A DNA stretch of 51,811 bases, counting the filler, from Jimgerdemannia flammicorona (taxonomy: Eukaryota): the NCBI GenBank assembly GCA_003990765.1. It is 2 parts of 2 records of this genome, joined end to end, with 100 filler letters (N's around TTAATTAATTAA, not from the genome) between each part and the next. Parts side by side here need not be neighbours in the genome. Positions count along the whole stretch, not along the records: positions 1 to 25,860 come from RBNJ01000782.1; 1 more part is not named here. One strand, written 5' to 3'. Position numbers and translations under genes: made by a program. This document shows, piece by piece, positions 1 through 25,991 of this stretch (position 1 is its first letter; each line of letters starts with the position of its first letter). Below the pieces are notes generated by a model. The model saw only the letters and a list, made by a program, of their open reading frames with translations. It did not search any database and had not been told where the DNA came from.

Positions 1-140
1 ACTCTAGTGTTTCTGACTAAACTCCAGAAGCCTAGCTAACTTCTGCCAGAACTGAGACCAGTATATAAATCCCCAAAGACTTAAGTAAACCCATTGAACC
101 TGAATTCCAAGGTGAATTCAGTCTGTGTACAGCAAAGAAC

Positions 141-224
141 AAGACCTTTGAAATAGAAGGCAAACCAGAACAAGACCTTTGAAATAGAAGGCAAACCAGA
201 GAAAGACCTTTGAAACAGAAGGCA
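141..224. repeat. 31-bp tandem repeat, about 2.7 copies (aagacctttgaaatagaaggcaaaccaga..)
   Basis: Units start at 141, 172 and 203, in CpG-depleted sequence. Confidence 0.85.
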
Positions 225-1271
225 CTGTCACTACAACTACTTATAAGTGAGTGCTTCCTCAACTGAAGGCTTCTTGGTACACATTGTGTACTAAGTCCCT
301 AAGTAATAGTCCACTTCCCTAATTATCCAAAGGATAAGAGAGGGGTAGAAGTGAGAGTTATTACACCCTATATATAATACCTATAATATTCTACTCTTCA
401 GAAGTTTTTCTTTTTTTCCTTAATTCTTGGGCAGTTTGTGGTAATTCTCACTTCTTATAATTTAATTCTTGTTGGCTTCATCCTGAAATATCTTCTTAGT
501 AAGATAGATTTATGTTTCTATTAGAACTGATATCTAATTGTTGGTAAATTTCATAGGTAATTCTCTCTGTATCCAAATATTCTTGAATAGCTTTGGTGTC
601 AGATACTTTGAAGACATAAGGAGCAATCTTTTCGCCTTGCTTACATTTCAAAATACTTCTGATTGTGCTGTAATTTTTGGGTTCCATAGTGGATTTAATG
701 TAAATTAGTTTCATATAGTAATTTTTATATAGGGATAGTCCTATGTACACAGTCTCATTACTAGGGGTCTTGCGGATTTTGGAGCGAGCTGGATGCATCC
801 AAAATTTTAGTATACTTATTTGAATATGAGATATAATGATGGAATCCAGGCAAAACCGAACCTTCACTGTGCAGCAAAATATTAATGCCTGATCTACGGG
901 GCTGTAGAAAATTTTGCGCACTGTCCCGTCTTGGGATGCGTAAGAGTGGAAGATTGTGTGCATTTTCTGCATAGATTTTTGGCACTGGCTGGGATGCATC
1001 CAGACGCTCCATTGTCACCGTGAGTACCTCTATTGCTTTTCTTAAACGTAGCGGCCTCTATAAGGAACTGCAGTTTATTACTACCTTTTCACTGCCATCT
1101 ACCGCGATGTGGCAAGTCGCACGAATTGTTTTGCACGTAATCATATATTTTATATTAATTCTCGTAACTCAGCTCGAGTAAGCGACAAAGACAATTTATA
1201 TTTACAGCTTCGCTCCCCGAACCAAACTCGGCAGCAAACCCAACAGAATGACCAATCTCTCTATCTTCCAA

Positions 1272-3511
1272 CTATTTGACCTTCTTCCTGACTGGCGTGT
1301 TGACGATATGGCCAAAAGAACCCCCGACCTTTCCACTCTCTGGCACCTCATCCTCCTCGCCATCTTCAGTCCGCCGTTTGCGATGCGCCCTAGAGTGAAA
1401 GAGCGCGACGTTGTTGGTGTGGTCACGGATTAACTTGAGAGTTTGCTGAGAGAAATGGAAAAAGTTAAGGTTAAGTAGCCAAACGTCGTAGTACAGTGCA
1501 TATAGATATTAAAGAGAAATACCTTGACATTCAACATGAGCACGTAGAAGGCTTCAAGAGTGGCAAGCATCCTGACCGTGGCTGGTAGCCTTGTTGTCGC
1601 AAGCCGGCCGAATCGACAGAGGTTCGCGGCCCGGCAGTCCATCCCGAACGTATAATAGACCCAACCTTACACCAAAAAAAAAATTGGGTATTATTTCCTT
1701 TTTTAAAAAGGGGACAACAAAAAATGTATTAACGACTGTTTTCTGCATACCCCACGATTGGACGCCGAGCACAAAGGTCCGATGCAGCTCGTCGTCTGGT
1801 GCATTATTGTTCGAAGCGAAAAACTCGTGAAGAATATCGCGCATAGTGATAGCCAAGTCGACATGATCTTCAAAGACCTTTTTCCGATGTGCCTCTGGAA
1901 GACCGCCTGATCTGAGACCAACAATTGCCTCGAGCTTGTCATTGCTGTGCTTGAGCGAGCCCCGAAAGTCACATTTTTGACCGACCCGCGCGCGGAGAAC
2001 GACAGAGCGGTCTTGTTTACGACGAGCCGCAGATGCCCAGCAACAGATTTCTCCACTAGAAAAGAGAAGAAAAGTATTTCAATTTGGTTAATCGGTGCAC
2101 TGTATTTTTATTTTATTTTTTTTTTTTTTCGCAAAGACATAAGTCAAACCCTAAAACTCACGTGTCCATCTTCAACTCGGATTTGTCGAGGAACCGTCTC
2201 ATCAGCATGTTAGGAAACGCGTTGTCAAATGCCGACTCTGACACCGGCAGATCCACGTCGCCGAGATTTTCCGCACTGGGTGGTGAATGCCATATATTAG
2301 GATATATGTTTAACAAAGGTAGATATATTGCTTCTACTCACTATGTTAGGACGGCGAGCATCAAGGTTTTGATTTCGCGTTTGTCGTCTGCGGTGAGTTC
2401 GATGCCGTGCTCTTTTGCAATGAACTCTGGCATGAGCTGATCAAACGCTATATCTAGATCATTGCTATCATTGACGATCTAGTAAAAACGGGAAGGAATA
2501 AACGAAGGCTCGTCCAAATCTCTTTCCGCATGAAATATTGCTCGAAGTTACCTTGTGAACTTTGTCAAAAAACCGACATACGGCGTCCGACACCTTCGTA
2601 TGCGACAGCTTGACATCCTGATGGAAGCTCTTTATCATCTCCGCCCAATCCTCAGTGGAAAACAGAGCTTTCGTCTCTGGATGGTCGCCGGTGAGATCCA
2701 GTATTCCCCAGTAAGCTGGGCTTCCAAACGCTTATGTGATTAATAGATTGGTATTGATATAATTGAAGAATCAGATCAGATCAAAATGACTTACTTTGAG
2801 CATTTCTGAGGTTCTGGGATCGTCTCGGCATAGTCCGCCAATACCTTTTGTACATTCGTTCCGCTCGAGAGAATCCAATATTTAGTATGATCTGGAGTGC
2901 ATTGATGCTCCAATCTTTCCACAAATGCATAGTCGACTTCATTTCCCGTCTCCATTGGGGCACCACGATTTTCTTCTGACGAAGCCGCGCAGTCCTCATT
3001 CTCAACCAATTCAATAACATCATCGCCTTTGCTGATACCTTCCTGACCTTCATCGAAGAGTTGATTGATAACATGCTTGTTCACATGAAATTCCTGATAT
3101 AAATATTAGTAAAGCTATTGTAAACAAAAAAGAAAATTTTAATATCCAAACTTTTGATATTACCTTTAAGTCTTCAATGGTACATGCTGAGGCTGCTTTC
3201 ATCCTTAGCGCAGTCTTGTGCTCCTCCTCTTCAGCTCTCCGTCGCAGTTTATTCTTGAATTGTGACAGTTCGGTGGATGAGAAACTTTTGTCATATGTGG
3301 TCAATATCTTTGTTGCCTTTTTTTTAGCGTTTTCGTTTACGTTCTCTTTTTTTATATAGCTCCGGAGCACGGCATAGATGTCGTCTTTAATATCGTTAAG
3401 CATATCAACAGACAGTTCCTGCTTTGACTCCAAGTATTGCAATATCGTAATAATTGACCAATCTTTATGTCTCGTCTCGTCAAGATAATCAAACACCAAA
3501 CGCTGAAACAT
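1272..3511 (-). CDS. Multi-exon gene for a putative PD-(D/E)XK/REase-like fold protein (Crinkler-associated-like family)
   Basis: GT-AG introns (e.g. donors at 3163 and 2794, acceptor at 3094). Exons join to MFQRLVFDYL...GEICCWASAARRKQDRSVVLRARVGQKCDFRG...LEAIVGLRSGGLP...DLAITMRDIL...FVLGVQSWG...TPVRKKVK*. The ATG at 3511 directly follows a tttag, so an upstream exon is possible. The fold call is from recalled motif similarity. Confidence 0.6.
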
Positions 3512-3603
3512 CTAAAAGAGAAAATGCGTGTGAATTTCTAGAAAGCCGTTTCAAAACTCAAACAGAATAAACACAGGGACAGTCAACTGTATGCTGGCAA
3601 ATA

Positions 3604-3848
3604 GCATGCAGGGGACTGGCCTTCAGCACGTATGCTCAAGGACGATCCTGGAGACTACTTCCAAGCATCTGATACAGGACATAATGGCCATATACCAGTA
3701 GGCATACGTAACACAACCTGGACACTGGCATGCAGGGGACTGGCCTTCAGCACGTATGTTCAAGGACGATCCTGGAGACCAGCGCCAAACATCTAACGCA
3801 GGACGTAATGGCCGTACGCCAGTAGGGCTGCGCGTGACTGATAGCATG
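3604..3848. repeat. Direct tandem repeat, period 124 bp, 2 copies
   Basis: gcatgcaggggactggccttcagcacgtatg.tcaaggacgatcctggagac starts at 3604 and at 3728. Confidence 0.9.
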
Positions 3849-4007
3849 TAAATAAATAAACCACGTACTTTCCTTGAAATTACGCACGTTGCTCAGGAAG
3901 TGACAGGCGCGGTGATGTGTGAGATGACCTATGACGTCACGATTTCACTTTGGTTTTGTTGCAGCACGCCCCATATGATTAGGGCCATCTTGTTGCTACG
4001 ATCGACC

Positions 4008-7000
4008 CCGGCGGTTGGCAGAGAGCGAAAGCAATGGGTTGAGAGATGGCTAACATGGGATGGTCGGGAGGTAGTTGCTTTGGACATTCTGGGGGGGGAC
4101 TTTAACATGGTGCGTGATTGTGTATTGGATAGGTCTGATGGTGGGGCAGGAGTTGCGGTATCCTCTGGACTTTCTCAGTGGCTTCAGGTGGAGCAGGACA
4201 TGGGTTTGGTGGATGGCGTTTGTCAATGACTGGGGGATGAGTTGGGATCTTTCACCCAGTGGCATCCAGTGGGAACAACATTGGTTAGAACGTGAATAGA
4301 TTGAATACTAGTGGCAGAGTGCTGGGACAATGTACTGGACACTGCAGAGATGTGCTGGTGCCCTTGGTCTGATCACTGGGGAGTGGAGGTATGTGGTAGA
4401 TTTCAAGAGGCAAGCAGTAGTGGAGGGCACTGGTGCCTCAATGTAGCCTTACTCAAGAGGAAGAAGGAGAGGGATGATTTTGTGATGGTTATAAGATAGG
4501 AAGTTTTGTAGTGGCAGAATGAAGAGTAGTTGATAGCAGAATGGTGGGGTAAATTCAAACATTTGGCTGGTGCTTACTGGTGGGATGTTGGCGAAGTAGC
4601 TGGGAAGGAGTAGAAGGACAAGGAAAGGAGAGTTGAAAAGGGGCTGAGATGGTGATTGAAGCTTATGGAAAAGGAGAACTTGTCTGAAGAGGTGAACCAC
4701 CAGTTGGCATTAGAGGTGGCAGAACTGCAGGCAGATTTAAGAGTATCTGAGACCAGGGTGGTGGATGGCCTGCTGGCCAGGCTGTGAGCTAGATAGTTGG
4801 AAGAAGGAGAGAGGCCGATGAGATATCTGTCTGATGTTTTGAAGGCTAGGCAAGTGCGACATAGTTAGGTCTCAGTATTGCATGAAGATGGAGTGGAGGT
4901 CTCTGGAATTGCTGACATACTAGGGGAGGTATCTGGTCAATGGCAAGCTCTTTGGTGGGATGGTGGGGAGCATGCTGAGGAGGCTGGGTTTGGGGAGGAT
5001 AATGACAATATGGTGACTAATTGACCAATGACAGTGATACCCAAGATAGGGGAGATAGTCATGAGGGAGGTATCTCTAGATGAAGTATTGGAAGTACTGA
5101 GGAAGACACAGTCTGGTTCATCTCTTGGGGAGGATGGGTTGCTCTGGGAATTCTGAAAGGAGTTCAAGGCCGAGTTTAGTAACTGGTTGGTGGAGATGGC
5201 CAATACTGTTCTGAAGGAGGGTCCTTGAGACTAGTCTCTCTTCTATATAAGGAAAAGGGAGATTGATGAGTGTGGTGCAATTGACAACCTATCATGCTGC
5301 TGAATGTGGATAGAAAGTTGGTGTCAAAGATTCTGGCAGAGAGGATGCAGTAATATGTTGGTGCGCTAGTTGGAGAAGAGCAGCAAGGCTTTGTTAAGGG
5401 AAGGCAGATCAGAGATAGTACTGCCTGGGTGCAGAATGTCTTGGAGGGCTGTAGGAGCTGGCAGATAGATAGCCAGATGGTCTTTCTGGATCAAGAGAAG
5501 GCCTATGACAGAGTGCAGTAGAGCTACCTGGAGGCTATTCTGAGGAGAGCAGAGTTTGGTATAGTAGAGGCAGGGTGTCTGATGGGCTTGGTATGGGGAT
5601 GCTGAGCTGTGGTGATGATGAATGAATGGTGTGGACCAGAGTTTGCCTTGGGGCAAGGGGTGCCACAGGGGGATCCTCTCTCCTCCCTTCTTTATATACT
5701 CTCTCTAGAGTCTTTGTTGGTGTGGCTGAAGGGGCAACTCTCTAGACTGCAGATGGGAGATGTGGTCTGGAAGTTGGGTGCCTTTGCGGATGACATAGTG
5801 GTAGGGTTGGGCAGTCAGGAGGATGTAGTAGTCCTACAAGAAGGGGTGGATCAGTATGAGAGGCTGGTAGAGGCAAAGTTGAACTAGGGCAAGTGTGAGA
5901 CAATAGAACTTGGTGCTGATCTGGGGGGGCATGGACAATTCGGACAATTGGTAGCCACAGGGAGTGCTGTTCGGTATCTGGGTATCTGGTTCTCGGTGTA
6001 TGGAACAGTCCTGCCAAGGGAGTGGTAGTGTAGATTGATTCAGAGACTGGAAGGTGCATTGACGGGTTGGTCAGAAAGAAGCTTCTCTTTGGTTGGCAGG
6101 ATAGTGGTCTTGAATGTATATTGGCTGCCCAAACTGTGGTATCTGGGTTATCATCTGGATTTTCCAGAAGGGTGGATATGGCATGGGAGGCATCCACAAA
6201 TTGGATGAGAGACTTTGGTGATGAGGACTTCTGATGGCAGCCTGGGGCTGGTAGATTTCAGGCGCCGACTGAAGGTACTTTGGGGTTGGTGGGGGCACCA
6301 ACTGATTGAACTTGGTAAGAAAGGTTGGGGCAGGCTGGCCATGGACAATTGGGAGGTCCGGTTCTGCCCTCATGGTGAGGTCTGGAAGGATATATGGGGC
6401 TTGCTTCAGGTTGGGAGTGTGGGTAGGCTGCGTTTCAAGGGGTTCTGGTGGGGTATTGTAGAGGTTTGGCTGGCCATGGAGTTGGTAGACCCAGAGATAG
6501 AGGTGGGGGTGGACCCTGAGCAGAGATGGTGGCAACTGGGTGACCTGTGTGTGGGTGGCCACAGTCTGAAGGAGTACTCCCTGATTGAGGCGATGGAGTG
6601 GAGCAGGTCTGGCCCTCTGGAGAGATGGCCACCAGGTTGGCAGAGAGCTGGTATTGGTGAGGACTTGGAGTAGGTTCAAATTTGGAAGTGGGGAACCTCA
6701 GTCCACAAGATGGTGCCCCTCAAATACTGGGTGGTTTGGTGGCAGTTTCTGAGACATATTGTGATGCTGAGCTATCAGACAGGCTGGATGGAGGTGGATG
6801 GCTGTCGAGACTATGAGTGGTGTAATGAGGTGGATAGAGGGGTTGTTCAGACTCCAGAACATGTTCTGGGGGCATGTCCAGGCATGGAAGGGTTTTGGAG
6901 GAGTCTGGAGGATTACTGGGGCCCAGAGAGACATAGGGCAGAGAATCCAGCCAGTCTGGTGGTCAAGTGCTGGCTGGTAGGAGAAATTGGTAATATGTGG

Positions 7001-7384
7001 GGGAGCTTAGGTCAAATTTTGGGGGTCTGGGTCTTGATAGCAGTGCATTGGTGGTGGATCTTTGAACAAGACCCATGGATAGGGATTGGAGAGATGGTAG
7101 AGTGGTGGAGGTGGCTGATACAGGAGGTGGTTTAGGGGTGGTAGTATCAGGGGAGGCAATGTCAGCCAGGGGCCTTAAAGAAGGTGCAGGACATTGTACT
7201 GCAGAGTCGAGGGTTTCTGGTATTAGATGATAGTGGGGTGAGATGGAAGGAAGGAGTTGGCTGAAGGACTCTACTTCTGTATATGTTATAGGATTAGTAG
7301 TGAATTGTGGCTCTTCATTATTGTATTAGATAGTTGTAATAAAGGAGTCTAAGAGACTATAAAAAAAAAAAAAAAAAAAAAAAA
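4008..7384 (+). mobile_element. 5'-truncated L1/Tx1-type LINE (decayed ORF2: AP endonuclease, RT, C-terminal Cys/His region), poly(A) tail, 16-bp TSD
   Basis: LGGDFN, WSDH, GVPQGDPLS, AFADD, RYLG and TPEHVLGACP motifs with many stops. Ends gagactat(A)n. TSD gttgctacgatcgacc at 3992-4007 and 7385-7400. Confidence 0.95.
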
Positions 7385-9029
7385 GTTGCTACGATCGACC
7401 TTTCCATTTTCGATTCTCAATTTCCACCCTTCGATACTTTTGAGAGCGACTTTCTTCCAGCTGGCTGCTTCAATTACTGTCCCCACTGTGGTTTCGCTCA
7501 TGGCTAGGTTTACGGTAACTAGGCAGTTCTGGCCTTGTCCGTTTCTTCCTCGGATTCGTCCGTCCCAGTAAAGGCCTTCCTTGTCTGGGTTGCCGTGGGC
7601 GAGCGACACCTGTCCCCATGGTCCTCCTGGGGTGGAACCTCGTAGTGCGATGTTCCTTGGTGTACTTGGTAGCGGTGGCGCAGCGCGTTGATAGCTTGCT
7701 GGTAGTTGGGTTTGTCTTGCTGACCCTTGGGCCTTCCTGCGGGTTGTTACCGGCTGAAGGTCCTGCTCTTGCTCCTCCTCTTCAAGCGGCTGGACTTCTA
7801 CTGGGATGTTCCAACATCCTTTGTCCTCGTCGCGTTCCCAATATTCACCAATTGGGTTGAGGGTGAGCTGACTCTCCAATCTTGAGTTGGGAGAGGTCCT
7901 GGTTCGTTGTTCATTTTCTCTGATTTCTCTGATGGCGGCTCGGTCTTCTGCGAAGCTTGCTGGGATTTCGATCCCCTTCCGCATAACCTTTCGTTCGCTG
8001 TATAGGATGTCCCATCCGTTTTCTTGTAGAAACTTGTTCCCTAGTAGGAACGAGGCACTGCCGGTTCCTTTTAGCACTGTCAGGTTTATCTGGTAGCTTT
8101 GTTCTCCTACCTTAAATTTTGCCTGATAGATTCTTCCTAGAACTCCGATCGGTGTTCCTCCGGCTCCTAGGAATCTTCGGTATTCCGGCTTAATCTGGTC
8201 TCTCATTTGTAGTTTCTCCAGTATTTCTTCGCTGATAACGTTTTCATCTGCTGCCGTATCGATTTTTGCTCGGTAGGTTTCCTGGTTGCGTTTGAGGGTC
8301 ACCCATACTTGTCCTATGGGGCCTGTTGCGGTACGCTTTCCTAGGATATTGGGTTCTGGTGCTTCTTCTAGTACGGCGATTTGTTCGTCCGATTGATATT
8401 CCCAATCTTCTTCTTCCGATTCTTCTTCGATGTTGTTAATTTCTTCGCCGAGTCGCTCTTCTTCTCCTTCTGAATCAATTTCGATTTCGTATGTTTTTCT
8501 TCCTACCCGACGAGTTCGTCCGGTTTTGAAAAATCTCCTTTTCTTTCCGAAGGTTACTCTTCGGCTCCCTTTCCGGTGAAATGGCTTATCTTCTTCCGGA
8601 TTGTCCACATCCATTGGTCTGCGTCCTCCGCGATCTCTTCTGAATGCTTCTAGGGGCATTTCTTCCCTGCATTCTTCTGCTGCTGGTCCGCTTCTTGGGT
8701 ACCGCGTTCTTGACCAGTAGTTTTTGTTGTAGTTTGTCTTGATCGTGCCTTCTTGGACGGCTGCGACAAACTTTCCTTTGAAGATGTTGAGGCATACATC
8801 TAGTACCTGTGCCGCCGTTGTTGCTGGTGCCGTAGTTAGCATCTGATTCTGTCGGTAATGGTATGGTAACCAGCCTGGCATTTTTCCTAGGATGAATTTC
8901 TCCTGAGTCGTGAACGTATCGTCCATCAGGCTTGCAATCCTCATTCGCAGTTCGAGTTGCGTGTTGTAATGCTGCATCTCGTGTATGCTCTGGGCATGCG
9001 ATCTGGGGAAATTGTATAGCTCTTCCCTT

Positions 9030-10223
9030 TTTTTTTTTTTTTTTTTTTTTAATGGACTCGATGTCTCGCGGATTTTTATTGGAAGGGAATCTAGACTATA
9101 TAGGTCAAAACCCTCTCTCACCACCCATCAAGCACTGCCCCCCCATTAACCTAGGCTAGCTATTGTCCAGCAGCTTGACCATGCTAGGCGCAGTAGGGCC
9201 TATAGTGGCCTGTACCTCATTTTGCACACCATGCTCTCTCTATCACCAGGGGAAACTCAGCCATATACCAATGACTGAAAGCACACACCCAAGAACCCAA
9301 CATATGTACAAGGTCACACTCGAGCTGAATAGAATAGCCCCTGCCACCCCAAAGAGAATGACAGGCAGAGAAAACCCCTCATCAAAGTACAACACAGTGG
9401 GTAGGGCCTGGTTCTCCCAGTTGAGATGAGTAAAGAACTTACATGTGAGGCAGAAGAAGACTTCTAATACTCCACTACTCAAGTCTGCAGGCCTAGATCA
9501 CATTGCCATATCAGCTCCTGGTTCCAGTTGAGTGCAGCCAAGATGTCTGAAATGAGTAGCCTTGGCCCCCCAATCCCCCCTGATGACTGGGACCCAATCT
9601 GCTAAATTATCAAAAGAAGCTGAGAGTGATACCTATTACCTAACCGCACTACACCAATCAAAAGGTCTCACCAAAGTAGCACCTGCCCCAGCCCCAATGA
9701 CTGCCCCCAGCCTGGCACCCTACTAGTTCACCATTATCACCCTTCCTCCTATCTATAATGGCCATCTCCCCTCCCATTCTGACAACACCTGAAAAGCAGT
9801 CATCTATATCAGAACTGCACTTGCTGGGAAGCTTGCCAAAGTCAGAAGGCCCCACTACAGATACCAAGAACCTGCAGGTAACCTATACTGAGCACTTGAT
9901 GCCCAAGGTCAGCTGACTCCCTATGTAGTCTGAGATACACCAAGATAGCACCTTGTTGGTAACAACAAAAGGAAGAAGGCACTGCACCAAAATGGATGCA
10001 CTCCAGATGCAGCTGAAGGCACCAGAAACTGTGAAAAAGTGGAGAAGATACTAATCTGACACTGATAAAGGGGCAACTCATCACCATTGCCTCCCTCCCA
10101 CTGCCCTGCAACAGGTACAGCAAACCAACCTGAGGTAGAGGGGGTAATAATTGTGGAAAGTGGACTCAGAAGGTTGCCTACCAAACCATTGTGACCAGTA
10201 AGGTAGCAGAGAAAGGGGCACTG
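9030..10223 (-). mobile_element. 5'-truncated non-LTR retrotransposon 3' fragment (second family), poly(A) tail, 13-bp TSD
   Basis: Poly(T) at 9028-9050 on the + strand. TSD tagctcttccctt at 9017-9029 and 10224-10236. CpG-depleted body. The 3' end (gagtccatt-An) differs from the gagactat-An family. Confidence 0.88.
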
Positions 10224-12990
10224 TAGCTCTTCCCTTATGATTGTGATTTGTTCTGCTCCAAAGAACTTCTCGTAGATCAGAAGTCTTAGGCCTTTCCTTG
10301 TTCCGACTGCGTCCGTGTAGGTCATCCATGATAGTGGCTTGTCGTGATCTGCCATATTTTTCGATAGGATGTCGTTCACCAACCATTCTTGCGCAAGTTC
10401 TTGAAATCTTGAACCTATGGCTGCTACGAGGCGGTAGCTGTAGCTTTTGGCTGGGTCGTCTGGTGATGATGCGTCTGCCCAGTATCCTGACAGGTATCCT
10501 GCGGATACATATGCCAAGTCGACTTGTCCCACAAATGCTGGGACTTCCATTGGGTTTCCGCTGAATGGTTTGATGTTATCGAATATTTTTATCGCTCCTG
10601 GGAGCGTCATGTTGACTGGTCCGGTTGACTTGACTGGTTCTTGGCCTCCTGGTGGATTGTGCGGTGGATGCTCCGGGTTTGTCTCGTGGTCATCCTGGTT
10701 CTCGAAGTATGCGAGGACTGCTCCTCCGATTGTCTTTTGATCTGCGTCTGAGAGGTCTCCCCAACTACTTTTAATGACATAGGTCATTATTGCTGAGTAG
10801 TAGAATATTACGAAACTTAGTGCGTCATGCTTGTAATCTTGGTGGAATATCAGGCTCGGGTTGTAGACCGGGGTTGGTCTTGATTTGCCTGTTCCTCTGG
10901 ATCCCGCACGCGATATCATATAGACTCCATCCGTATTCTTGAGCCCAATCGCTTCCTGCCAATCCTCCGGTTTTCCAATTTCCTGGAAAAGGGGGAATTC
11001 CTCCAACTCCGTGTTGTCCTTGGTATGCCATCATGGTTCTAAGGATGATGTCCAGAATCCTCTTGTAGATGTCATCTGTTGGGTAGTTAGTTCCTCCGTT
11101 TGGTTCGGTTTTGGAGTCTGATAGTACCCATGCATCTCCTGCAAAGTGGAATGCCGTTGCTTCGTCTGGCATATCTACTAGTTCCCAGGCCCATCCTAGG
11201 CGTCTCTTCTTGGCCTTGGTGATCGTGCCCTGGTATTCCTGTTATTTGGCGGCCTTGGTGGTTCTCCGCCTGCTCCAGCCGTGGGTCCTCTTGGCTGTGG
11301 TGGAGTTGCTCTGGTTAGCCGCGATAGGATCCTCTGGGTTTCACTTTGCGTATCTCTTGTCCCTTCTACTCTTCTAAGTAGTTCCTCGTTTTCGCGGCGT
11401 GCTCGTTCCCGACTTTCTTGTAGCTGTCGGTGGGCACTGTCATCCAATCTTTGTCGCACTCTTCCTGTTGGCAACGCGTTTCTTGCTGTTTCTTCCGGTA
11501 TCGGTGCGAAAGGATTTGGCTGGGTCCTCGACCTTTCTGGTGCCCTTGGTGTTGCGATTTCTTCGTCGTTTGTGGTCCACGGGCTTGGTTGGAAGCGAAG
11601 TTCCCTTACTTTCTGCTTTGCTTCTGTTGCGGCCGTGATTCGGGTCGCTGTTTGGGCAATAACCCCTGGGTTTGCTGCTCTTCTTTGGCCCAATCTTGCC
11701 GTGGCTGCGATGATATCGTCTGTGGTTGTTGGCCTTGTTTGTGCGATATCTTCCAATCTCCTCCTTTCTTCTTGAACATCTGGTGTTCTTGGGGTTGACA
11801 GGATGTTAATGGCCGTTCTTGTCGTCATGTGGCCTGGTGGCCTTGGTCCCATCGGTGCTGGTTGATTGAAGTAGCTTTCTCCTACTTCTTCTGCGCCGTG
11901 CCAGTTTCCGTCGTTTTCCTTTTTCAACCATGCCGTCAATCTCATTGTCTGATTGATTCTTTCCTCCGGCCAGTTGTGTTTCTCCAATAGGTACTTGAAG
12001 AATTTTTGTTGTACGGATAGAATTGATCTTCCTCCGTGTTCGTCGATACTCAACAGGACTTGTAGTTGAACGTCCTTGAAGTGACCTCCGAGTTGGTTGG
12101 CTACGAAGATTGCGCTTTCGTACCTTACTGGGGGTCGCTTTCTGATGATTATCTTCACCTTCTGGTATCCGTCTTCTAGGTAATCTGAGACGTTTCTTGG
12201 GATCTCCCTGAACTTCGGGTTTCTTCCGTCCGCTGTGTTCTGGAAGGATTTTCTCCAAAATGAGGTCCATTTTGAGATTCCTTCGACGTGTGTTGTGTCG
12301 ATGGTTCCTTCACTTGGGATTGTGTTGGCTGTCTCTCCGTCCGACTGGTGGCCTTCTTCAGGTTCTCCGTGGATGGTTTCTTCCATTTCGTCGATCCTTG
12401 TCCTGAGCTCTTGCTGCTCGATTGGGGCAGCTGGGTTCTGATCTCCTTGGATGCCTGAGAACCATTGCTCTGTGACCGTTGACGTAGGCCTTGGCTGTCT
12501 TTGTAGCGGCGCGCTTTCTTCTGATCTGCGGCTTGCTCGGCTCGCTCTGCGGCTTGCTACTTGTTCCTCGAGTTCAGCAATTCGTGCCTGTTGTCTGACG
12601 ATTTGCTCTTGGAGTCTTTTTTCCGACTCTGTTTCGGCTTCAATGCTATTGCTTCTGAAGCGGAATAGCGTTGTTCCGTAGGGGGCTGACGTTGCGCGTT
12701 CAGTTTCATTATGAACGTTGATGTTGTTGTTGGCTGCCATTTGTCTTGATCCTCCGGACTGATCCAAATCTCAGTATCTAGCGGCTAATATTGGACGGTC
12801 GGTTGGTTACGAATGTCGTTAAGGGCTTATACTTCCGCTGAGAGTGGCTTCTTCGTCTCGAGGCTAAGCTTTAAGATCACCGCAAAAAAAGTGAGTGCGA
12901 AGCTGCTGCTTTTTGAGAGTGATAGCGTAAAAGCTATTGTGGGTTTATTGGGGTTTTTTTGTGGTGAGGAATTCGAGTTCCAATACACCT

Positions 12991-13000
12991 GTATTTATAC
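12991..13000 (-). promoter_or_regulatory. Candidate TATA box upstream of the Gag-like ORF
   Basis: Minus strand reads gTATAAATAc, about 250 bp upstream of ATG 12740 in the intergenic spacer. Confidence 0.35.
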
Positions 13001-13138
13001 AGTTTTTAGAGCTTTCGCTTCTGCTAGTCCTATACTATTCGTAGCTCTCTCGGTGGTATCGCGGTGTCTTCTCTTTTCCCTTTTGGGAGTTATTTAGCAG
13101 TCCAGACTAGCAGTGCTAGTCTTCGACAGATCCTTTCC

Positions 13139-14708
13139 TTATAAGGATTCTCCGCTGTCCCACACGCTACTTCCCCATTCGTTTGCTTCATCCGCGAAGT
13201 CTGCCGGTGTTGCACCATTGATTATTTCCTGCAGTTCTTCTGCTGATAATTCCGTGCTTGTTCCTTCGCTTGATGCGGTCGTCAGTAGCCATAGCTCTTC
13301 TTGCCTTCTGATCAGCTTGTTGAGCGTCTTCATTTCGCTTACCTTGACCCGGGTGATCATGCTTGGGGTCAGGCCTTTGACTCTTCCATAGAACTCCTCC
13401 GTGGGTTCGTGAAAGAGCATTCGACAGCTCCTTATCTTGGTTTTTATGTAGTCCAGCTCAGTTTTTCCTAATGTTTTCCCATTAGCTGTCTGGACTTCTG
13501 CCTTGATGTTCTTCGTAATGGTCTTCATTGCCTGCTTTCTGGCTTCTTCGATTGGGAACCCTCTTTGCACCAGGGCTTGGCTTCTGTCTTCCCAGACCTT
13601 GCTAATTTCTAGGTAGCACTTGATTGCTGATACGTAGAATTGGTCCGCTCTTTTTTCGATTACCAGCGCCTTTGCCAGTAGGTGGGATTCCTTGAAGCCG
13701 AACTCCAGGTTTGCGACGTCTTCATCCGTCGGTTCATACCATCCGGCCAGGTGCCAGGCTCTGATTTCCTTGAATCTTTTCAAGACTCTTTTCGCCGCGG
13801 TTGATAGTCCTTCTTCGCTTGCTTCCGCGAGGACTTGCTGTACCGTTGGCAGTTCCGCCGTTATTGTTGGCCCTTGATTCATTCTTGGGGCTGCGATTCT
13901 TGCTCGCAGTTCTTCCTCGTTTTCCGCGAATCTTTCTTCCCTTGATGTCCGGGTGATTGCGGCTTCTTGAACTTCACTTCTCAGTTCTTCCTGGTCAGCG
14001 GCTGGTGTTTCTGGAACGATTTCTCCTTCGTCCTCTGTGAGTATTTGTTCTTCTCCAACCGGTTGTGCTAACCTTGAGATTCTTCTGGCTCGAGTCCGCC
14101 TAGCCCCTGTTGCTGTTCTGAACTCCCTGAGTTCTTGAACTTGTTGATGCAGTTGCTCCGTGAGTTCTGCATCTTCCTGGGCTTGCTGTACCATTTCCTG
14201 ATATCGGTCTTCGATTCCCATAGCGTGGTGCTCGAGCTTCTTTATCCTATCCTCCATATATGCCAGTGTTGCTTCTTTCGGGATTTCGATAATCCTTTCC
14301 CTGCAGTACAGGCATATTCCTCCGATGTTTTCCTCTACGTCCTTGATGGTTCCGTCTTCGAGGGTGGTTTCGCCGACCTTAATTCTCTTGTGGTTGGCGT
14401 ACACCAATCCCACGCATTTGAGGTGGATCGTCCGGTCGCATGCAGCGGGCTTGGTTCTCCCCGAATTCTTCTAAGCATCCGATGCATGCTGGTTCTTCCT
14501 CCCTTGGTCGTTTCAGAGATATTACCATCTCTACATATCCTTCTGCTTCTTCTCTGAAGTAGAGGGCCTTGTCGTGTCGGACTAGGATTGCTTCGTTTGG
14601 CTGAAGCTGCTCCATAGCTTCTCTGGCTCCGAACATCATTCTTTTTGGTAGAATGTCCGGCGGGATCCTCTGTCCTTCTTCTAGGATTGGTGCTCCTCCG
14701 GCTACCAT
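13139..14708 (-). pseudogene. Intronless PHD-like zinc finger + coiled-coil + helical C-terminal domain protein, one frameshift, 5' end possibly truncated
   Basis: ORF 14379..14708 gives CIGC...ARC. The frame of ORF 13139..14413, extended upstream, gives CDRTIHLKCV...ICLYC. Together this is C4HC3 spacing, followed by a heptad-like E/Q/L-rich stretch. Confidence 0.65.
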
Positions 14709-14715
14709 TGTCCAC

Positions 14716-17700
14716 TATGTCATCTGCAAAGGCTCCCACCTTCCACACCACACCATAGATTGAGAGCCCTGGATCCTATCCATCAAGGGTTCCAATGAAA
14801 GGGCATAGAGAATAGAAGACAGTGGATCCCCTTGAGGAACTCCCCTCCCCAAGGGGAATACCAAGCTCTGGTGACTATTACACATCAGTGCTGCCCTACT
14901 TCTCTTCAAAAGATTCAACATAGAGGCTTGGAATTGTAGTGGAACATCAATTCTGTCCAGTACTTTGCCCAGCCACATCTGCTGAATGTGGTCATAGGCC
15001 TTCTCCTGGTCCAAGAAGACCAATCTCCTATCCAACTCACTAGCCTGAGCCCCTTTAATGACTCCATAGACCCAAGCCATCTCATCTCTAATAAGTCTGC
15101 CTCCAACAAAGCCCTGCTGCTCCTCTTTTTTTTTTTTTTTTTTTTTTATAGTCTCCCCACTACTCCTCACCTAGTACCTATTGAGCAACCTTCTATAATC
15201 TAGCCATGATCATCTTAGTAACCATCTTCTTGTCTATATTTAGAAGCATAATCAGTCTCTAATTTTTCTAGTCCTCTCTTCTACTCTTGTTCTTATATAA
15301 CAGGGCCACCAGCCCTAGATTCTATCCTCTGACCTACTTACTATTCAGAAATACAAAGTCACAAAAGGTTGCCATCTCTCCTAATACTCCAGAGACCCTT
15401 GTCATCTTCTTTCAAAAGTCCCAAGGTAATCCATCCTCTCCTGATGCTGTCCCTAGCTTAGTTGCCACAAGGACTCTCTGGATCTCCTCCTCTTGAACTA
15501 ATAGGATCAAATCTCCCAGGTCCTCTATCTGTAGTAGCTCTCAATCCTCTAGAGTATCTCCAATTACTTCAACACTAGCTCCCCCTTTCTCCTCACTCTA
15601 CAGATCTCTCTATCTCTCCTTCAGCAATCTCAATATCTGTTGAGTACTATATACTAGTTCACTCTCTACATCAAAGACTCTATTTCAACAATATCACACC
15701 CTTCTTGTCTGGAAAAGTCTCAACAAATACTTAGTAGGCCTCTCACTCTCCTCAAGCCCCTGCCACCTCAGTCTAGCTGCTATACTTTTCATATATATCT
15801 CCTCCTCCTCTCTCAGTATCTGTTACAACTCCATTACTTCAAACTTAGCTTACATCAATCTCTAATCATTCATCTCTCCAGAATTTAACAAATCTGCCCA
15901 TTCTATCTACAGTCTGACCAACCTATTAGAAGCCCACTTCACCCTTCTCCTTCTCTGCCTCCCAGCCTCTCTATTAGCTCTACTCCAGTAATCTCTCATA
16001 GTCTCTTTCAGCTTCATCTACTAGATATCTACAGGTGAGCCCTCATATATCCAACCAGCAATCTTCACCTATATATCCTCCATCCAAGGGTCCCATAGCC
16101 TCTTCTCAGCCAGCAGGGAGAAGTTAAGGTATTAATATCTGGGTCCATCTCCACTCCCCCCAAACTGCCTCTGCCCTAATAGTCTCTAGTGATCAGATCA
16201 TGGATACCACTCAATCTCTAATGACTTTCAAACATCCATACTTCAGTATTTGGCTGTTAGTATCTAGTTAATTCTTGTATCTAGACCATTTATCTAATAT
16301 GTATAGATCCTCTTTTCTCCCCATAGTATCCTGCTCATATCTCTTAAGGAGCTAAGGTTTTTCACCTCTTTCTATAAGTCCAGGCCACCACTCCTTCCAC
16401 TGGTACTCCTTCCACCATTAGTTTGATCTATCTGAAGATTCTGTACTATATTAAAGTCACTCTCCAGAATATTCACTCCATTCTCCAAGAGGGCACCCTC
16501 CTTCAATAGACTCTTGATCCATGTAATTCTCTTACCCTGAGCCATAGGGCAATAGCAGGATCTTATCTTCACTGACTCTCAACCAGGGCAAATCCATTTC
16601 CCCTATACTAAATGATCTCTCCAGTTCCTGATACCCCCTAACTCTCCTCTACTACTCTATATCAGAATAGCCACTTTGTCCTCTCAAACAGCAGTGCCCC
16701 CCCATTCTCTAGTCTATTCCTCTTGATCTAGATCATTCTCACAATATACATCCTATAACAGAAAGAGATCAGCCTCTAATCTCTTAAGCTAAGTGAAAAT
16801 GTTTTTCATCTCCCAGAGCTCTGTAGTCCATTCATATTCAGCAAAAAAATATTAGTTATAGTGTTTATTAGAAATAATGTTTAAATAAAAGAACTCTTTA
16901 CAACTTAGCCCTCATCTCTCTCCTTACCAGATCTATTCTCTGTTCAGCAGAATTTTCCACATTCAGCATCTTATCTGTCTCCAGTCTAGCTAGAAGATTA
17001 GCTAGTTCTATATCTTTCTTCTCTTCCATTATATCTCTATACTCCTGACATACACTCTGCTAGAGTTGAAGGTTTCTTCTCTGCTTCTATCAAAAGGCAG
17101 TCTATTTTCCTACAACTGCTGCCAATTTCTTCTCTCTTGCCTCATTAATCTCATATCCCTCCTTCTTTATGAAGATGGCCAACACCTCCACCTTGAGTAT
17201 CTCTACTACTCCATCTCTATATAGTACCCTTTTCCAATGCTTCTCACTAATAACTCTCAAGTCCACATCCTCCAATTCCTCAGCTGTCAAGTTATGTATT
17301 ATATAGCATATCTACCACAAGTCTCCAATATCTTTCCCCTCAGGAGTGTTCAGCCATCTCATACCCAGCATTGATAAATTAATTCCAGTACTAGCAGATT
17401 CTTTCTACTTCTCATCTGAGACATCCACTAGCTCATCCTCCTTAGGTTCTGTGACCTGACCCCCCATCTCAGCCTTGAGAACTCCAAATTAGACTCTATA
17501 TATATCTCTCATCTCTACATCCTCTCCAACTATTTACCTTCTAGAGCTAGTTAGTGCTCTATCATTTTTATCATTCTCAAAGACCTCTAGTATACTATCA
17601 TCATACAGTATCTGATCTCTAGTTACCCTACTTACTTGATTATCTGCCACTTTTATCTCTACTCTACTACTGGCCCAAGTACTCACCTTTGTCCTCTCAG

Positions 17701-19010
17701 GACCTTCAGCTCTCCTCAACTCCTTGGCAGCATTCTCCTTCATACTAGCCAGCAGCTCTCTCTGTCTTTTCCTCCCTTGGGCTCATTCCCACTGCTTCTT
17801 ATTAATATAAATATGCTTCTCTTCTATTACCTCTAGATATATTGAATCTATAAAGAACTTCTAAGCCTTTGCTCTATACTCTACTGCTCCACTGAACTCC
17901 TCCAGTGTCTCCAGTAGATCCTCTTCCTCCTCCTCACTTCTCTTCACTCTCAAGATCTTATAGATAAAGGCTCTTCATCAATACTAATGGCCAGTCCCTA
18001 GTCTTCTCAGTCACCTCTCTCCCAGTTAGTCTAATTCTCACATCTACATTATTTATTCTGATAGTGGTCTCTTCCTATATCTGAAATTTAATATCCACTA
18101 TATTACTATACTCAGCCATCACCTCCTCTATTCTGTACCTTGTCTCAACCATCATCACTATTGGTACTCCTTTTATCAGGAACTATACTACTCTCAGATC
18201 TCATCTTAAGCATCTTGCCATAGATACTACTATCTCTCTAACTACCAGTCTAGTTTTCAGCATCTCCTCTATTGGCCCAGCCTCCTCAAAGTCCACCTCA
18301 ACTCCCTCCAGGCCTTTTAGAAACTTCACTGAAGCCATACTAGCCATTTTCTTTGAGATGAGCCCTAGGATTATTCTTGTTATTATAGCTAAGCTCTGGA
18401 AGCACAAAGTGACTGCAAACTCTAAAATCAACTTCTTGAGTAATAGTGCTACCACTAGCCCTATCACACCATCAGTCAGGTCCCTCATCCTCTTTGGTCC
18501 CATCAGCCCAGCCTCACCATCAACTATCACATGTGGATTTTTTTTCAGATTTCTAGTCATATTACCATCAGCAGTTCTGCTCTTTCTCTCAGCTATACCT
18601 ACACTGGCCCTCTCTCCCCCAGTCTGAGGCACTGCCCCTCTATCTGTCATCTCTCTCTGTTTCTCTTTCCTCCCTGTCTGACTACTATAAGATCTAACAG
18701 ATCACCCACCAGTCTTTACCAAATCTGCAAAACTTCTTCCCCTCTACCTTTTAGCTTCAGCTCCAGTGTAGCCACTATTGCCAGACCTACTCTGCCCACT
18801 CGGGCCACCAATAGACCCCATCTCCAGTCCATATCCTCTTCTGACATATTGCTAGTCAAAGGCCCCAGTCTATCTGACCTAGTATATGTGTCAGCTTGCT
18901 TATTGGTTGCTATACTCTTAGTATCTTTCTCTAATAAACACTTTGAAAGTATATTGTAAAAGTATGTGTAATATGAATAGTAGCTGAGAAAGGTGTGACA
19001 ATATGCACAT
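14716..19010 (-). mobile_element. Decayed L1/Tx1-type LINE: 5'UTR, ORF1, ORF2 EN and RT, cut off just after AFADDIV
   Basis: DQEKAYD, GVPQGDPLS, VGAFADD and ILESDFN motifs. ORF1 and 5'UTR are homologous to the plus-strand copy at 19725-25860. No 3' half or tail. Confidence 0.9.
15126..15154 (-). mobile_element. Minimal LINE insertion: last 7-8 nt plus poly(A)22, with diverged 14-bp TSD
   Basis: T22-atagtct(c) is the reverse complement of the gagactat(A)n end at 7353-7384. Flanks are ccctgctgctcctc (15112-15125) and ccccactactcctc (15155-15168). Confidence 0.8.
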
Positions 19011-19230
19011 AAGGTCCCTCTGCCTTTTATAGACACTCTATCTAGTCTCTCCATCAGCTATTATATCTCTTTTTTTTTTTTCTAGATCCACTATTACACT
19101 ACCATCAGCCCACAGTACTTTCAGCACCTACACTCACTCCTCCAGACTGAGGACCTCTCTCTCTTCCTATACTAGTCTTGTCCTTTCTCTCAGCCATACC
19201 AGCTATAGCTTCAACTGACTATCCACTCTC
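19011..19230 (-). mobile_element. Third fragment of the same LINE ORF1
   Basis: The reverse complement aligns by eye to 20020-20245 of the plus-strand LINE. Confidence 0.7.
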
Positions 19231-19320
19231 TTTTTTTTTTTTTTATAGTCTCTTAGACTCCTTTATTACCTAATCTAATATAATAACAAATCCCATGTTG
19301 TGGCTACTACAAAAATAATA
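19231..19320 (-). mobile_element. LINE 3' end with poly(A), gagactat family
   Basis: T14-atagtctcttagactcctttattac matches the reverse complement of 7336-7384. The distal boundary is approximate. Confidence 0.85.
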
Positions 19321-19724
19321 CATATACAAAGGCCTATAGGTATATTTTATCTTAAGAGGGATATATCTCCTTCAGTAATATATCTGGGATTGAATTTACT
19401 GAGATACTCCTCCTTCTCTTTGCTTTGGTCTTTGTATAGTTGGGTTTGCTTAGCATCAAAGTAAATAGTATCAGTTATATATCAGATTTCAGATGAGCTT
19501 AATTTAAAAGCTAGTTTGGATTCAGTATTAGTTTTGGTTTCAGATAGAGCTGTAGCTAGGCCTGTCTCAGGTTCAGGATCAGGTTGTTGATAAAGGATTT
19601 CTCTTACTTCTTTTTTAAGAATATGGTGGACCTTATAATTCTGGAAGCAGTAGTATAAGGTGGTCTTAATTCTGATATAGTAAAAGTTAGTAGGGTTGAA
19701 CCACTTGGCTATAAAGGCTTGGAC

Positions 19725-22700
19725 TTTATCATCAGTATCTTTCTCCAGTATAATTCACATTACACCAACTTCAAGCAATGGTTTTTGATACAACTTAGAG
19801 AAAAGGTACTATAAAAATATCATCAAGTAAGAGTTCTGACAGATATGCTGGATTGGGTGGACCTGAGGCATTTGGCTGGCAGAATGTGGGAAGAGGTTAT
19901 AGACTAGGGATGGGGGCCTTTGGAGGGTCAAAGGGTGGTAATAGCTCTGGAGCAGGACAGGTGTCAGGTGGAAATAGGGGATAGCCTGGCCCCCCAAGCT
20001 TTGTGGACAAGGTAAAGAAGAGTGAATGGTCAGCAGAAGCTAGGGCTGGTACTGCTGAGGGAAAGGGCAAGGTGAGCTTTGAGAGAGAGAGAGGTATTCA
20101 GACTAGAGTTGTGAGCATAGGGGCTGAAGGTGCTGTGGCTGGGGAAGAGACTGCTGATGGGAGTATGATGAAGAATCAGGAAAAAAAGAAGATGTAACAG
20201 CTGATGATAGAGTGGGGTAGGGGTTCCTGAAGCAGAAGGAGGACCTGGCTGATGATGTGATGGGGCTGATAGTGGTGCTGTTACTCAAGAAGTTGATCTT
20301 GGAGTTTGTAGTGACTCTGTACTTCTAGGGCTTAGTGGTGATAGCAAGAATAGTCCTGAGAATTATCTCAAAGCAGGTGGCTGAGGCTGCCTCAGTGAAG
20401 TTCCTGAAGGGCCTGGAGGGGATTGAGGTGAGCTTTGAAGAGGTAGGTCCACTGGATGAAGTATTGAAGACTGAAGTGGAAGTAGGTAAGATGATGGTCT
20501 CCATGGTACAGTGTTTGAGGTGGGACCCCAGAGTGGTCCAGTTGCTAGTAAAGGGGGTATCTACAGTGATGACAGCAGAGACTAGAAGGAGGGTAGAAGA
20601 GGTGATGGCAGAGTATGGAGATGTGGTCAATATTGGGTTCCAGATATAGAAGGGAACTACTTTCAGGACTGGAGATATTGATGTCAGGATTAGGCTAGCT
20701 GAGAGGGAGACCACAGGGAAGATGAGTGACTGGCTATCAGTGATGATGTGAAGAGCCTTCATTTGTAAGATATCAAGGGTAAAAGGGAGTGAGAAGGAGG
20801 AGGAGGATCTGTTGAAAGCTCTAGAGGAGATGAGTGGCACTGTGGAGTAGAGAATAAAGGCTTGGAGGATGTATGTAGAGTCAATGCATTTGGAGATTGT
20901 AGAGGAAAGACATATCCACACTGACAAGAGATAGTGGGAGAGGGCCCAGGGGCACAAGAGATAGTAAGAGCTGTTGGCTAGTATGAAAGAAGGAGCAAAG
21001 AAGAAGGTGGATGAGACTGAGGAGTCTGGGGGCACTGAAGCTAGTGTCTGGGCTAGTAAAGAAGGAGGGGATGTAGAGGAGGGCCTAGAGGGGGCTGGGA
21101 AGATGCCAAGCAAGAACCCCTATATAGATGGTATATTTGAAGTCTGGGAGGAGGATTTGGATGATACTCCCTCTCTTGTCAGGAGGGGCCCAGCTGTAAA
21201 GAGAAGGGCAGCAGAAGATGTGCTGATGCAGGGTGCCCAGTGAGTACACTTTGGAGTCCCTGATGTGATAAAAGGGGGACAGGTGGTGGTAGTTGGTGAG
21301 GACAAGCTGGTGGATATCCCAGAGAAAGAGTAGGATAAGTCTGCAAGTACTGAGGCTAATACCACAATACTGAATGCTGGAAGACCAGTGATGCCAGAAG
21401 GGAAAGAGGTGGGGAACCTACTGTGGATACACCAAATAATAAATGACTTAGTGGTTGAGGAGCTGAGAGAAGTAGACCTGAGTGTAATGAGCAAGAAGTA
21501 TTGAGTACAGATTCTATATAGTGATGAAGTAGTAGTAGCTCTGAAGGGGGAGGTGCTTGTAATTCTTCTGGAGGAAGAGGGGTATGAGGTTGACAAGGAA
21601 AGGGAGGCAGAGCTGACTGTTGTTGCCAGTGAGCAGGCTGCTTACTGTTGGGTGGAGCATCATAGTCTGAAACTCTGGCAGGAGATCTGCCTGGAATATC
21701 ATAAGAAATTTGAGGAGAAGGAGAATAGGGCAATAGCTGAACTCCTAGTGGGATTAGAGGTAAAGGAGACTGAAGAGGAGGAATTGACTGCAGAATATAT
21801 CTTAGACTTGATATAGGAGGAGATAAATGTGGATTTGTAGAGGATGTACTAGATCTTACTTCTAAATATTATTCTCAATAAACAGTACAACTAACATTTT
21901 TTCTCTGAATATGAATGGATTAAGAGGCTCTGGGCAGTGAAAGAACATTTTTACTTAGCTTAAGAGATTAGAGGCTAATCTCTTTTTGCTGCAGGATATA
22001 TATTATGAGGATGAGGAGGATCAAATAGAGTAGACTAGAGAATGGGGAAGGGCTAGTGCTCCCAAATAAGTTGAATCAATTTGAATTGAATCAAATTAAG
22101 AGTCTGATTCGAACCCTAATTTTCAAAATGCAATAACTCAGTGTAAACTCATCCAAATCTAACGTACCTTAGCTTGTTAGAATCACATTAATACGGTGAA
22201 TCTAACAAGCTAAAATATGTTAAATTTGGATGAGTTTTCGTCGAGTTATTATATTTTGAAAATTAAGGTTCAAATCAAACTTCAAATTGAATTGGACCTT
22301 TGATTCGATTTGAATCAAATCAAATTGGACCCTTGATTCAATTGAATTGAATCAAGTTTGGGCCAAATTCGATTCAATTCAATTCATTGGGAGCACTAGG
22401 AGGGGCTACAGCTTAGATTGATAAGGTAGTGATTTTGGTACAAGATGGTAAAGGAGATTTAGGTGGAATCAGGAACTGGGAAGACCATTTGGTATGGGGG
22501 GAATGACATCAATCTGGGTGGGAGTCAGTGAAAGTTAGCTCTTATTACTGCCTGGCAACTAGGGGTGAGCAGATTGCATAGATTAAGGGTTTGTTAGAAG
22601 AAGGTATACTCTTGAAGGAAGGGATAGATATTCTGGGAGGGGACTTTAATATGGTGTGGAATTCTCAATTAGATTGAACTGATGGAGGGAGGAATGTGGG

Positions 22701-25700: not shown

Positions 25701-25860
25701 TGGGAGAGATTGTTGGGAGATTTGCTGACTGGGTGGTAGATTGGTTGGGGTCTCCAGAGTGAGCAATGTTGTCATCTAGTAGAAGGGATATGTGAACAGA
25801 GTAGTGGACAGATGGCAATAGTGAATGATAAAGTAGTCTTTTATTACAAGATGGGGGGAG
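19725..25860 (+). mobile_element. Near full-length decayed L1/Tx1-type LINE (ORF1 about 19885-21850, ORF2 about 21880-25860), cut by the contig end
   Basis: NMNGL, LGGDFN, WSDH, GVPQEDPLS, AFADD and RYLD motifs with dense stops. Nearly CpG-free. Confidence 0.92.
22054..22398. mobile_element. hAT-like MITE (345 bp) inside LINE ORF2
   Basis: TIRs tagtgctcccaa / ttgggagcacta. 8-bp TSD ggaagggc (22046-22053) / ggaggggc (22399-22406). Subterminal ttgaat/attcaa motifs. Confidence 0.9.
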
Positions 25861-25960
25861 NNNNNNNNNNNNNNNNNNNNNNNNNNNNNNNNNNNNNNNN
25901 NNNNTTAATTAATTAANNNNNNNNNNNNNNNNNNNNNNNNNNNNNNNNNNNNNNNNNNNN
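25861..25960. other. Artificial contig linker (N44-TTAATTAATTAA-N44)
   Basis: A palindromic 12-mer with stops in all six frames between equal N runs, 100 bp in total. Confidence 0.95.
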
Positions 25961-25991
25961 AAAAAAAAAAAAAAAAAACTCCTATACTCAC

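Follow-up and report, generated by a model that had tools for sequence, protein, structure and literature searches.

A probable Pol-less Gag-like/protease unit, present as a dead copy, in the fungus Jimgerdemannia flammicorona

The window analysed here is a stretch of 51.8 kb from the genome of Jimgerdemannia flammicorona (Endogonales; assembly GCA_003990765.1), made of two joined records, with all coordinates counted along the whole stretch. By a modest balance of probability, positions 14711-3929 of its minus strand form a single unit of retroelement type, A-rich and free of introns, that has two genes, the open reading frames (ORFs) ORF1 and ORF2, and lacks reverse transcriptase (RT), RNase H and integrase. 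On the best-supported reading, the locus holds a dead copy of a Pol-less unit, restricted in lineage, that encodes a Gag-like protein and a protease; the Gag or capsid identity is a lead and not a finding. ORF1 and ORF2 are taken as one unit because they lie on the same strand and have the same composition: the bases of ORF1 and of segments A, C and D of ORF2 are alike (A 33-37%, T 12-18%) and unlike those of the long interspersed nuclear elements (LINEs) of the window, of the ORFs downstream of 3929 and of a host ORF. The copy is regarded as dead because ORF2 is broken by two recent retroposon insertions and carries two frame changes, with one more in ORF1; these frame changes are either real indels or assembly errors.

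From 5' to 3' along the minus strand, the unit and the sequences that border or interrupt it comprise the following features.

14712-19233, minus strand: LINE copy that bounds the unit on the 5' side and is cut at 14712, just past the RT motif AFADDIV (tblastx, self-blastn).
14382-14708, minus strand: N-terminal part of ORF1, 109 codons from the ATG at 14708-14706, with CIGC at 14475-14486 (sequence, ORF list).
13139-14470, minus strand: main part of ORF1, 443 codons and a stop, with a Cys/His motif, coiled-coil-like stretches and a helical C-terminal part (translation).
12741-13138, minus strand: spacer between the ORFs, with a TATAAATA box at 12992-12999 (sequence).
11199-12740, minus strand: ORF2 segment A, 514 codons from the ATG at 12740, with a coiled-coil-like N-terminus, a globular part and a Pro/Arg-rich tail (translation).
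11031-11241, minus strand: ORF2 segment B, a coding signal in the -1 frame (main-frame stops and codon-usage log-odds).
10224-11030, minus strand: ORF2 segment C, 269 codons, with a putative capsid-like region from ~10571 (KPFSGNP...) (translation).
9030-10223, minus strand: insertion 2, a poly(A) retroposon of 1.2 kb that carries AATAAA and an A23 tail and in which no coding capacity was found (tail and target-site duplication, TSD).
7385-9028, minus strand: ORF2 segment D, 548 codons (translation).
8729-9028, minus strand: first 100 codons of segment D, predicted to be helical and putatively the C-terminal part of the capsid-like region (atlas neighbours, low-confidence models).
8456-8617, minus strand: PMDVD, a basic tract (GKKRRFF...) and an acidic run (EIEIDSEGEEE) (translation).
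8024-8296, minus strand: retropepsin domain, with DTAA at 8249-8260 and the flap-side motif LLGNKF at 8030-8047 (Pfam gag-asp_proteas).
7385-7852, minus strand: conserved post-protease region with the motifs IGEYWERD, GLYWDGRIR and IEGWKLR (identity to the relative P0002).
4008-7384, plus strand: insertion 1, a LINE copy of 3.4 kb whose ORFs are broken and which has an A24 tail (RT fragment, tail, TSD).
3929-3991, minus strand: ORF2 segment E, the final 20 codons (KMALIIWGVLQQNQSEIVTS) and the TAG stop at 3929-3931 (translation).

The protease is the domain of ORF2 identified by profile. It matches Pfam gag-asp_proteas (PF13975) with an E value of 1.2e-8 and 35.9 bits against a cut-off of 28.2, as well as PF13650 (Asp_protease_2) with 29.6 bits against a cut-off of 24.3, in agreement with the preliminary description of this DNA, which had placed a protease in ORF2. 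Its catalytic motif is DTAA both here and in the relative P0002, so that Asp and Thr are kept and Gly is replaced by Ala, a departure from D-T/S-G, while the five distant relatives P0003-P0007 all carry DTG (DTGA or DTGC). Since the same replacement is found in both known copies (P0002 residues DTAAD), DTAA is suggested to be a conserved variant rather than a product of decay. The ~220 codons counted between the gag-asp_proteas domain and the stop, as well as the stop itself (TAG at 3929-3931), were found as first described; the conserved region within them was without a Pfam match at E<=10.

Pfam matched neither RT nor RNase H nor integrase in ORF2 or in the ORFs of 1-3929. A tblastn search of the whole window with P0006, a protein that joins protease, RT, RNase H and integrase (PR-RT-RH-IN), matched only 8018-8275, which is the protease (E 9e-10), and no Ty3-type RT or integrase. 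The series of RT, RNase H and integrase that follows the protease in an autonomous Ty3/gypsy element was thus not found. Rfam and tRNA scans returned no match. No repeat is common to 12741-14800 and 1-3928 by blastn at word size 7 or by self-blastn, a comparison in which a lone 3' long terminal repeat (LTR) would go unseen. Both the missing RT, RNase H and integrase and the flanks devoid of a common repeat had been part of the preliminary description and are borne out; its conclusion that there is no LTR is unwarranted even though no repeat pair was found, as a breakpoint at 14712 delimits the unit on its 5' side.

The Pol-less state is not peculiar to the copy in the window. A single close relative is known, P0002, a 457-aa (amino acid) partial hypothetical protein of Jimgerdemannia flammicorona, which is 73-76% identical to segment D over 345-347 aligned residues. 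The search of segment D against 1.84 billion representative proteins, performed without a word index, returned six proteins at E<=0.001, among which only P0002 is close, and apart from it nothing is nearer than E 5.6e-7. The post-protease region is the same in P0002, and the 318 residues beyond its protease contain no RT. Identity to P0002 amounts to 106/121 in the protease, 23/24 in the first post-protease motif, 51/75 in the last block and 21/39, with 8 gap columns, in the linker after the protease; the last ~105 residues of P0002 have no counterpart in the window. Coding thus appears limited to the Gag-like part and added domains, without RT or integrase, in both copies, and because both share this layout, it is older than the split between P0002 and the window; the Pol-less form is old. 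Further homologue searches gave one match for segment D at near lengths (P0002), none for segment C at 147-471 aa and none for segment A at 282-900 aa, and two scans of metagenome contigs (with the A1 alignment and with segment C) found no relative.

These data bear directly on an unlikely alternative, namely that the locus is a deletion derivative of an autonomous Ty3/gypsy LTR retrotransposon which lost its RT-RH-IN part and LTRs, and whose parents lie elsewhere in the genome, outside the sampled sequence. In its favour, sequence has really been lost at the locus, the unit being joined at its 5' end to a truncated LINE by a rearrangement breakpoint; retroposons are nested in the region; and transposon ORFs are often absent from protein libraries, which makes the lack of relatives weak evidence. 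P0002, however, is equally Pol-less and has the same conserved region where RT would begin, the nearest RT-joined protease is just 33% identical (E 4.4e-4), and ORF2 closes with a stop, after which no RT remnant occurs in the next 3.9 kb.

The relation between the two copies also tells of selection. When unconstrained substitution was simulated to ~75% amino-acid identity, only 4/3000 sequences stayed free of stops, on the basis of which the two copies have been under purifying selection for most of their divergence. Such selection would suit a domesticated host gene of the PEG10 kind, coding for Gag and protease, of which the locus would be a pseudogenised paralogue, as would the TATA box upstream of ORF2, the failure to find an LTR and the altered DTAA common to both copies. 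This explanation is nevertheless quite unlikely: the locus holds no intact ORF, as two insertions and two to three frameshifts interrupt it, its surroundings are a nest of transposons, its coding sequence is A-rich and intron-less, unlike the host ORF, and active transposon lineages likewise show selection between copies.

The reading as a Pol-less retroelement-type unit further draws on the region upstream of the protease, where the order of ORF2 would be a ~720-aa N-terminal part, a probable Ty3/gypsy-type capsid region, a basic tract, an acidic linker, the DTAA retropepsin and a ~160-aa conserved region. The capsid-like region consists of two halves, 10571-10224 and 9028-8729, which are separated by insertion 2 and were searched separately. 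In a protein language-model atlas the nearest named neighbours of segment C include DUF4939 (0.89), Retrotrans_gag (0.87) and Ty3_capsid clusters, and those of the start of segment D include zf-CCHC (0.90), Caulimovir_coat_dom (0.89), Retrotrans_gag (0.88) and Ty3_capsid (0.86). The rejoined stretch agrees with what we take to be the helix pattern of Ty3/gypsy capsids. The long N-terminal part ahead of this region, which had been put at about 700 aa, was confirmed at ~720 aa, and segment A gave no Pfam match above cut-off and no PDB sequence match. The translation of ORF2 contains no zinc knuckle (CCHC) and has a basic tract after PMDVD instead, again as noted earlier.

Several observations weigh against the preferred reading. 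The atlas scores, at 0.85-0.91, are leads only; neither half of the capsid-like region matches a Gag profile in Pfam at E<=10, and PDB sequence searches of either half found no solved capsid. AlphaFold modelling of segment D with P0002 reached a mean pLDDT (predicted local distance difference test) of 33, and that of the first 135 aa of D alone 51; both models contain some helices and are unusable, their poor quality being due to the small number of relatives. Foldseek against the PDB with the pLDDT-51 model gave no match at E<=0.001, and VIA-align wide with the same model gave a best Z of 5.4 to generic helical proteins, with no capsid among the matches listed; with so poor a model, these results have no bearing on the fold. 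The capsid-like identity proposed in the preliminary description is consequently not sustained by any alignment or fold, as Pfam, PDB and AlphaFold/fold searches were blank and only the atlas neighbours point to Gag. DTAA in place of DTG may signal that the protease is inactive. The unit has no known LTR, primer-binding site, TSD or copy number, and its mobility is hypothetical; just two copies are known, one of them a partial gene model, and predicted proteomes often omit transposon ORFs, with the consequence that the absence of Pol-bearing relatives is weak evidence. Moreover, six alternative-frame ORFs of 100-170 codons occur on the strand of the unit, and the openness of the -1 frame in segment B proves nothing by itself.

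The best PDB sequence matches of the protease are also adverse, as they are Ddi1 proteins (E 0.01), in view of which a cellular origin is conceivable. On this ground the locus might be ascribed to a fast-evolving cellular protein with a Ddi1-like retropepsin that does not derive from a retroelement, the resemblance to a capsid being spurious, and it fits with this that one of the five distant matches, P0005, is a ubiquitin-Ddi1 protein and that no Gag profile was matched. The explanation is very improbable, given that gag-asp_proteas passes best while the Ddi1-type Pfam model reaches 24.6 bits, below its cut-off of 26, that Gag-family clusters lie near two separate pieces of ORF2 in the atlas, and that the A-rich intron-less composition suits a retroelement.

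The ORF2 of the Pol-less unit is not restored by the two excisions alone. Segments A and C share a frame, but stops lie between them at 11196-98, 11178-80, 11175-77 and 11031-33. The -1 frame is open over 11241-10825; entry into it must fall within 11241-11199 and the +1 return within ~11030-10900. By codon-usage log-odds, for which segments A, C and D together with ORF1 served as training set, the frame of segment A wins down to ~11290, the -1 frame wins clearly from ~11258 to ~11050 (+5 to +12 per 30 codons), the main frame scores -8 to -10 per 30 codons over 11258-11109, and the A/C frame leads again from ~10900. Beyond the two excisions, ORF2 therefore needs a -1 change followed by a +1 change to be read without a break; these two changes represent either real compensating indels or assembly errors. 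With both changes its length is ~1,403 codons, so that the earlier claim of a ~1,400-aa polyprotein recovered by two excisions stands for the length and fails for the continuity.

Two other explanations of the junction between segments A, B and C were tried and rejected. An intron between segments A and C is ruled out, the coding strand having no GT in 11320-11196. A programmed -1 frameshift from A to B was discarded as well, with no slippery heptamer in 11241-11199 and with the frame reverting 70-100 codons later.

Insertion 1 is flanked by an exact 16-bp TSD, GGTCGATCGTAGCAAC (minus-strand reading), at 3992-4007 and 7385-7400. Its RT fragment at 5606-5884 scores 29.0 bits with Pfam RVT_1, slightly below the cut-off of 29.6, and tblastx relates it to two other LINE copies of the window (E 1e-54), the RT of one of which scores 41.3 bits. 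RT, a 3' poly(A) and a TSD, the marks of a LINE, are all found in insertion 1, the marginally sub-cut-off RT score being backed by the copy family. Excision with one TSD copy rejoins the frame as ...GKVDRSN|KMALII...TS*, in full accordance with the LINE and the rejoined frame first proposed for 4008-7384.

Insertion 2 has its TSD, GGGAAGAGCTA (11 bp), at 9017-9027 and 10224-10234, or 13 bp at 9017-9029 and 10224-10236 when two leading A are counted, and the frame across it reads ...IIREEL|YNFPRSH... once it is excised. This element had been called a second LINE; the coordinates, TSD and restored frame were reproduced, whereas the LINE identity was not, as no RT or other Pfam match was obtained in the five ORFs tested. 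Self-blastn likewise revealed no similarity to the other LINE copies of the window. From its AATAAA, A23 tail and TSD it follows that insertion 2 was mobilised in the manner of the LINEs, as a poly(A) retroposon. To judge from the perfect TSDs and the purity of the A tails, the two insertions are probably recent.

ORF1 lies upstream of ORF2 and totals ~520 aa, reckoned from the ATG at 14708 to the stop at 13139. Its frame changes once, close to a G4 run at ~14455-14470: the N-terminal frame is closed by a stop at 14379-14381 and the reading goes on in the +1 frame. Its Cys/His motif is composed of C..H..C at 14414-14446 and CLYC at 14303-14314. ORF1 had no Pfam match above cut-off and no PDB sequence match at E<=0.1. 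The segment 12770-13130, treated in the preliminary description as the upstream spacer of a single ORF, indeed holds no shared repeat, but it is a spacer between two ORFs, with ORF1 of the same composition (14708-13139) upstream of it. The spacer with its TATAAATA box is a possible promoter or leader of ORF2.

At its 5' edge the unit abuts the LINE cut at 14712. The 3' 1.6 kb of this LINE was found nowhere in the window, including downstream of the unit. LINEs are not normally truncated at the 3' end, and the edge at 14712 is for this reason interpreted as a breakpoint, at which whatever preceded ORF1 on the 5' side, possibly with a 5' LTR, may have disappeared.

A chimeric LINE-mediated retrocopy ending at the A14 run (2116-2129) was considered and rejected, since no 9-mer that could be a TSD is shared between 2070-2116 and 14000-27000; it is also at odds with the change of composition at the ORF2 stop.

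The LINEs around the unit present some features of their own. The copies at 14712-19233 (minus) and 20014-25978 (plus) are ~72% identical and stand inverted, head to head. A 38-nt piece of LINE tail (tail and A22) lies at 15126-15163 within the RT of the minus-strand LINE, and a 56-nt LINE tail at 19231-19286, 93% identical to 7318-7374, is followed by A14. Such short LINE-tail insertions suggest a recently very active LINE family with extreme 5' truncations. The LINE sense strands (4013-7360 plus, 14713-19230 minus) contain 12-14% C and 30-36% G, with a GC skew of ~+0.45. Two N runs, 25861-25904 and 25917-25960, taken as assembly gaps, stand just ahead of the A18 tail of the plus-strand LINE.

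At the point where the A-richness ends, immediately 3' of the ORF2 stop, 3604-3702 and 3728-3826 form a 124-nt tandem duplicate with 87% identity over 99 nt. The minus strand of 1554-3511 contains ORFs of 153, 104, 87 and 174 codons in three frames, with a different composition, an ATG at 3511 and no Pfam match; this run may be a multi-exon or frameshifted gene. Elsewhere in the window, 41690-42286 (plus) is a host-type exon coding for a phenol hydroxylase C-terminal dimerisation domain (E 2.9e-23), and 44450-47467 (plus) is a host-type, GC-rich coiled-coil ORF of 1005 codons that belongs to no family.

An intact copy of the Pol-less unit would yield a polyprotein cleavable by its own protease, provided that DTAA is active, and would thereby free a capsid-like protein, while alone it could neither copy nor integrate itself. 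Such a copy would be either a non-autonomous retroelement borrowing RT and integrase in trans, or a gene once retained by the host. A more far-reaching proposal, which we consider doubtful, is that Endogonales keep under selection a Pol-less two-gene module, consisting of ORF1 and a 1,400-aa Gag-like polyprotein with a DTAA retropepsin and a conserved C-terminal domain, as a counterpart of PEG10-type domestication or as a capsid-supplying satellite that uses foreign RTs. The active LINEs of the genome are one candidate source of RT for such a satellite, because the unit is fused to a LINE at 14712.

Plants and mammals are already known to have Pol-less Gag genes, which act as non-autonomous partners in the former and are domesticated in the latter. 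In the literature searched, which was covered mostly at the level of abstracts, no description of a Pol-less Gag family in Endogonales or other early-diverging fungi was met. Should other Endogonales prove to have the family in an intact, expressed form, it would add a new example in which capsid and protease are kept without a replicase, with an active-site variant that is unusual and an N-terminal extension that is very long. At present, with a dead copy and one known relative, its value is that of a lead for transposon annotation in Endogonales genomes.

Compared with Ty3/gypsy elements (Metaviridae), the unit shares the order of capsid-like region, basic tract and retropepsin, the A-rich sense strand and the Retrotrans_gag and Ty3_capsid atlas neighbours, but no RT, RNase H, integrase, LTR pair or Pfam Gag match was found in it, and it has in addition the ~720-aa N-terminal extension and a separate upstream ORF. 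Ogre/Tat plant elements carry an extra ORF 5' of gag-pro, with RT-RH-IN after an intron, and LTRs; the unit is similar to them in the additional ORF upstream of a gag-protease ORF, whereas nothing like RT-RH-IN follows in it. In PEG10 a CCHC knuckle is present, the active site is DSG and a programmed -1 frameshift occurs, in contrast to the unit, which has no knuckle, a DTAA motif and a -1 shift that lacks a slippery heptamer and is reversed 70-100 codons later, and which is a dead copy. The likeness lies in the combination of a Gag-like part and a retropepsin without RT or integrase, since mammalian PEG10 and RTL1, in the parts of the sources covered, are described as domesticated, Ty3/gypsy-derived Gag and retropepsin genes of this composition that are kept by selection (PMC10570562, PMC10604271).

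In plants, again according to the parts of the sources covered, TR-GAG elements are Gag-only non-autonomous LTR retrotransposons (PMC4350172), and RLG_Quinta and RLG_Sabrina of wheat are long-lived Gag-only non-autonomous LTR retrotransposons without RT or integrase, with an extra domain of unknown function in Quinta (PMC11302176). These plant elements have their Gag ORF intact and last for tens of millions of years alongside an autonomous partner, with which they have LTRs, a primer-binding site as well as a polypurine tract in common, and no protease is reported for them in those parts. The unit, for which no LTR or partner is known, resembles TR-GAG, Quinta and Sabrina in its Gag or Gag-like coding without RT or integrase, and differs from them in its fungal host, in its upstream ORF1 and in the protease that it retains.

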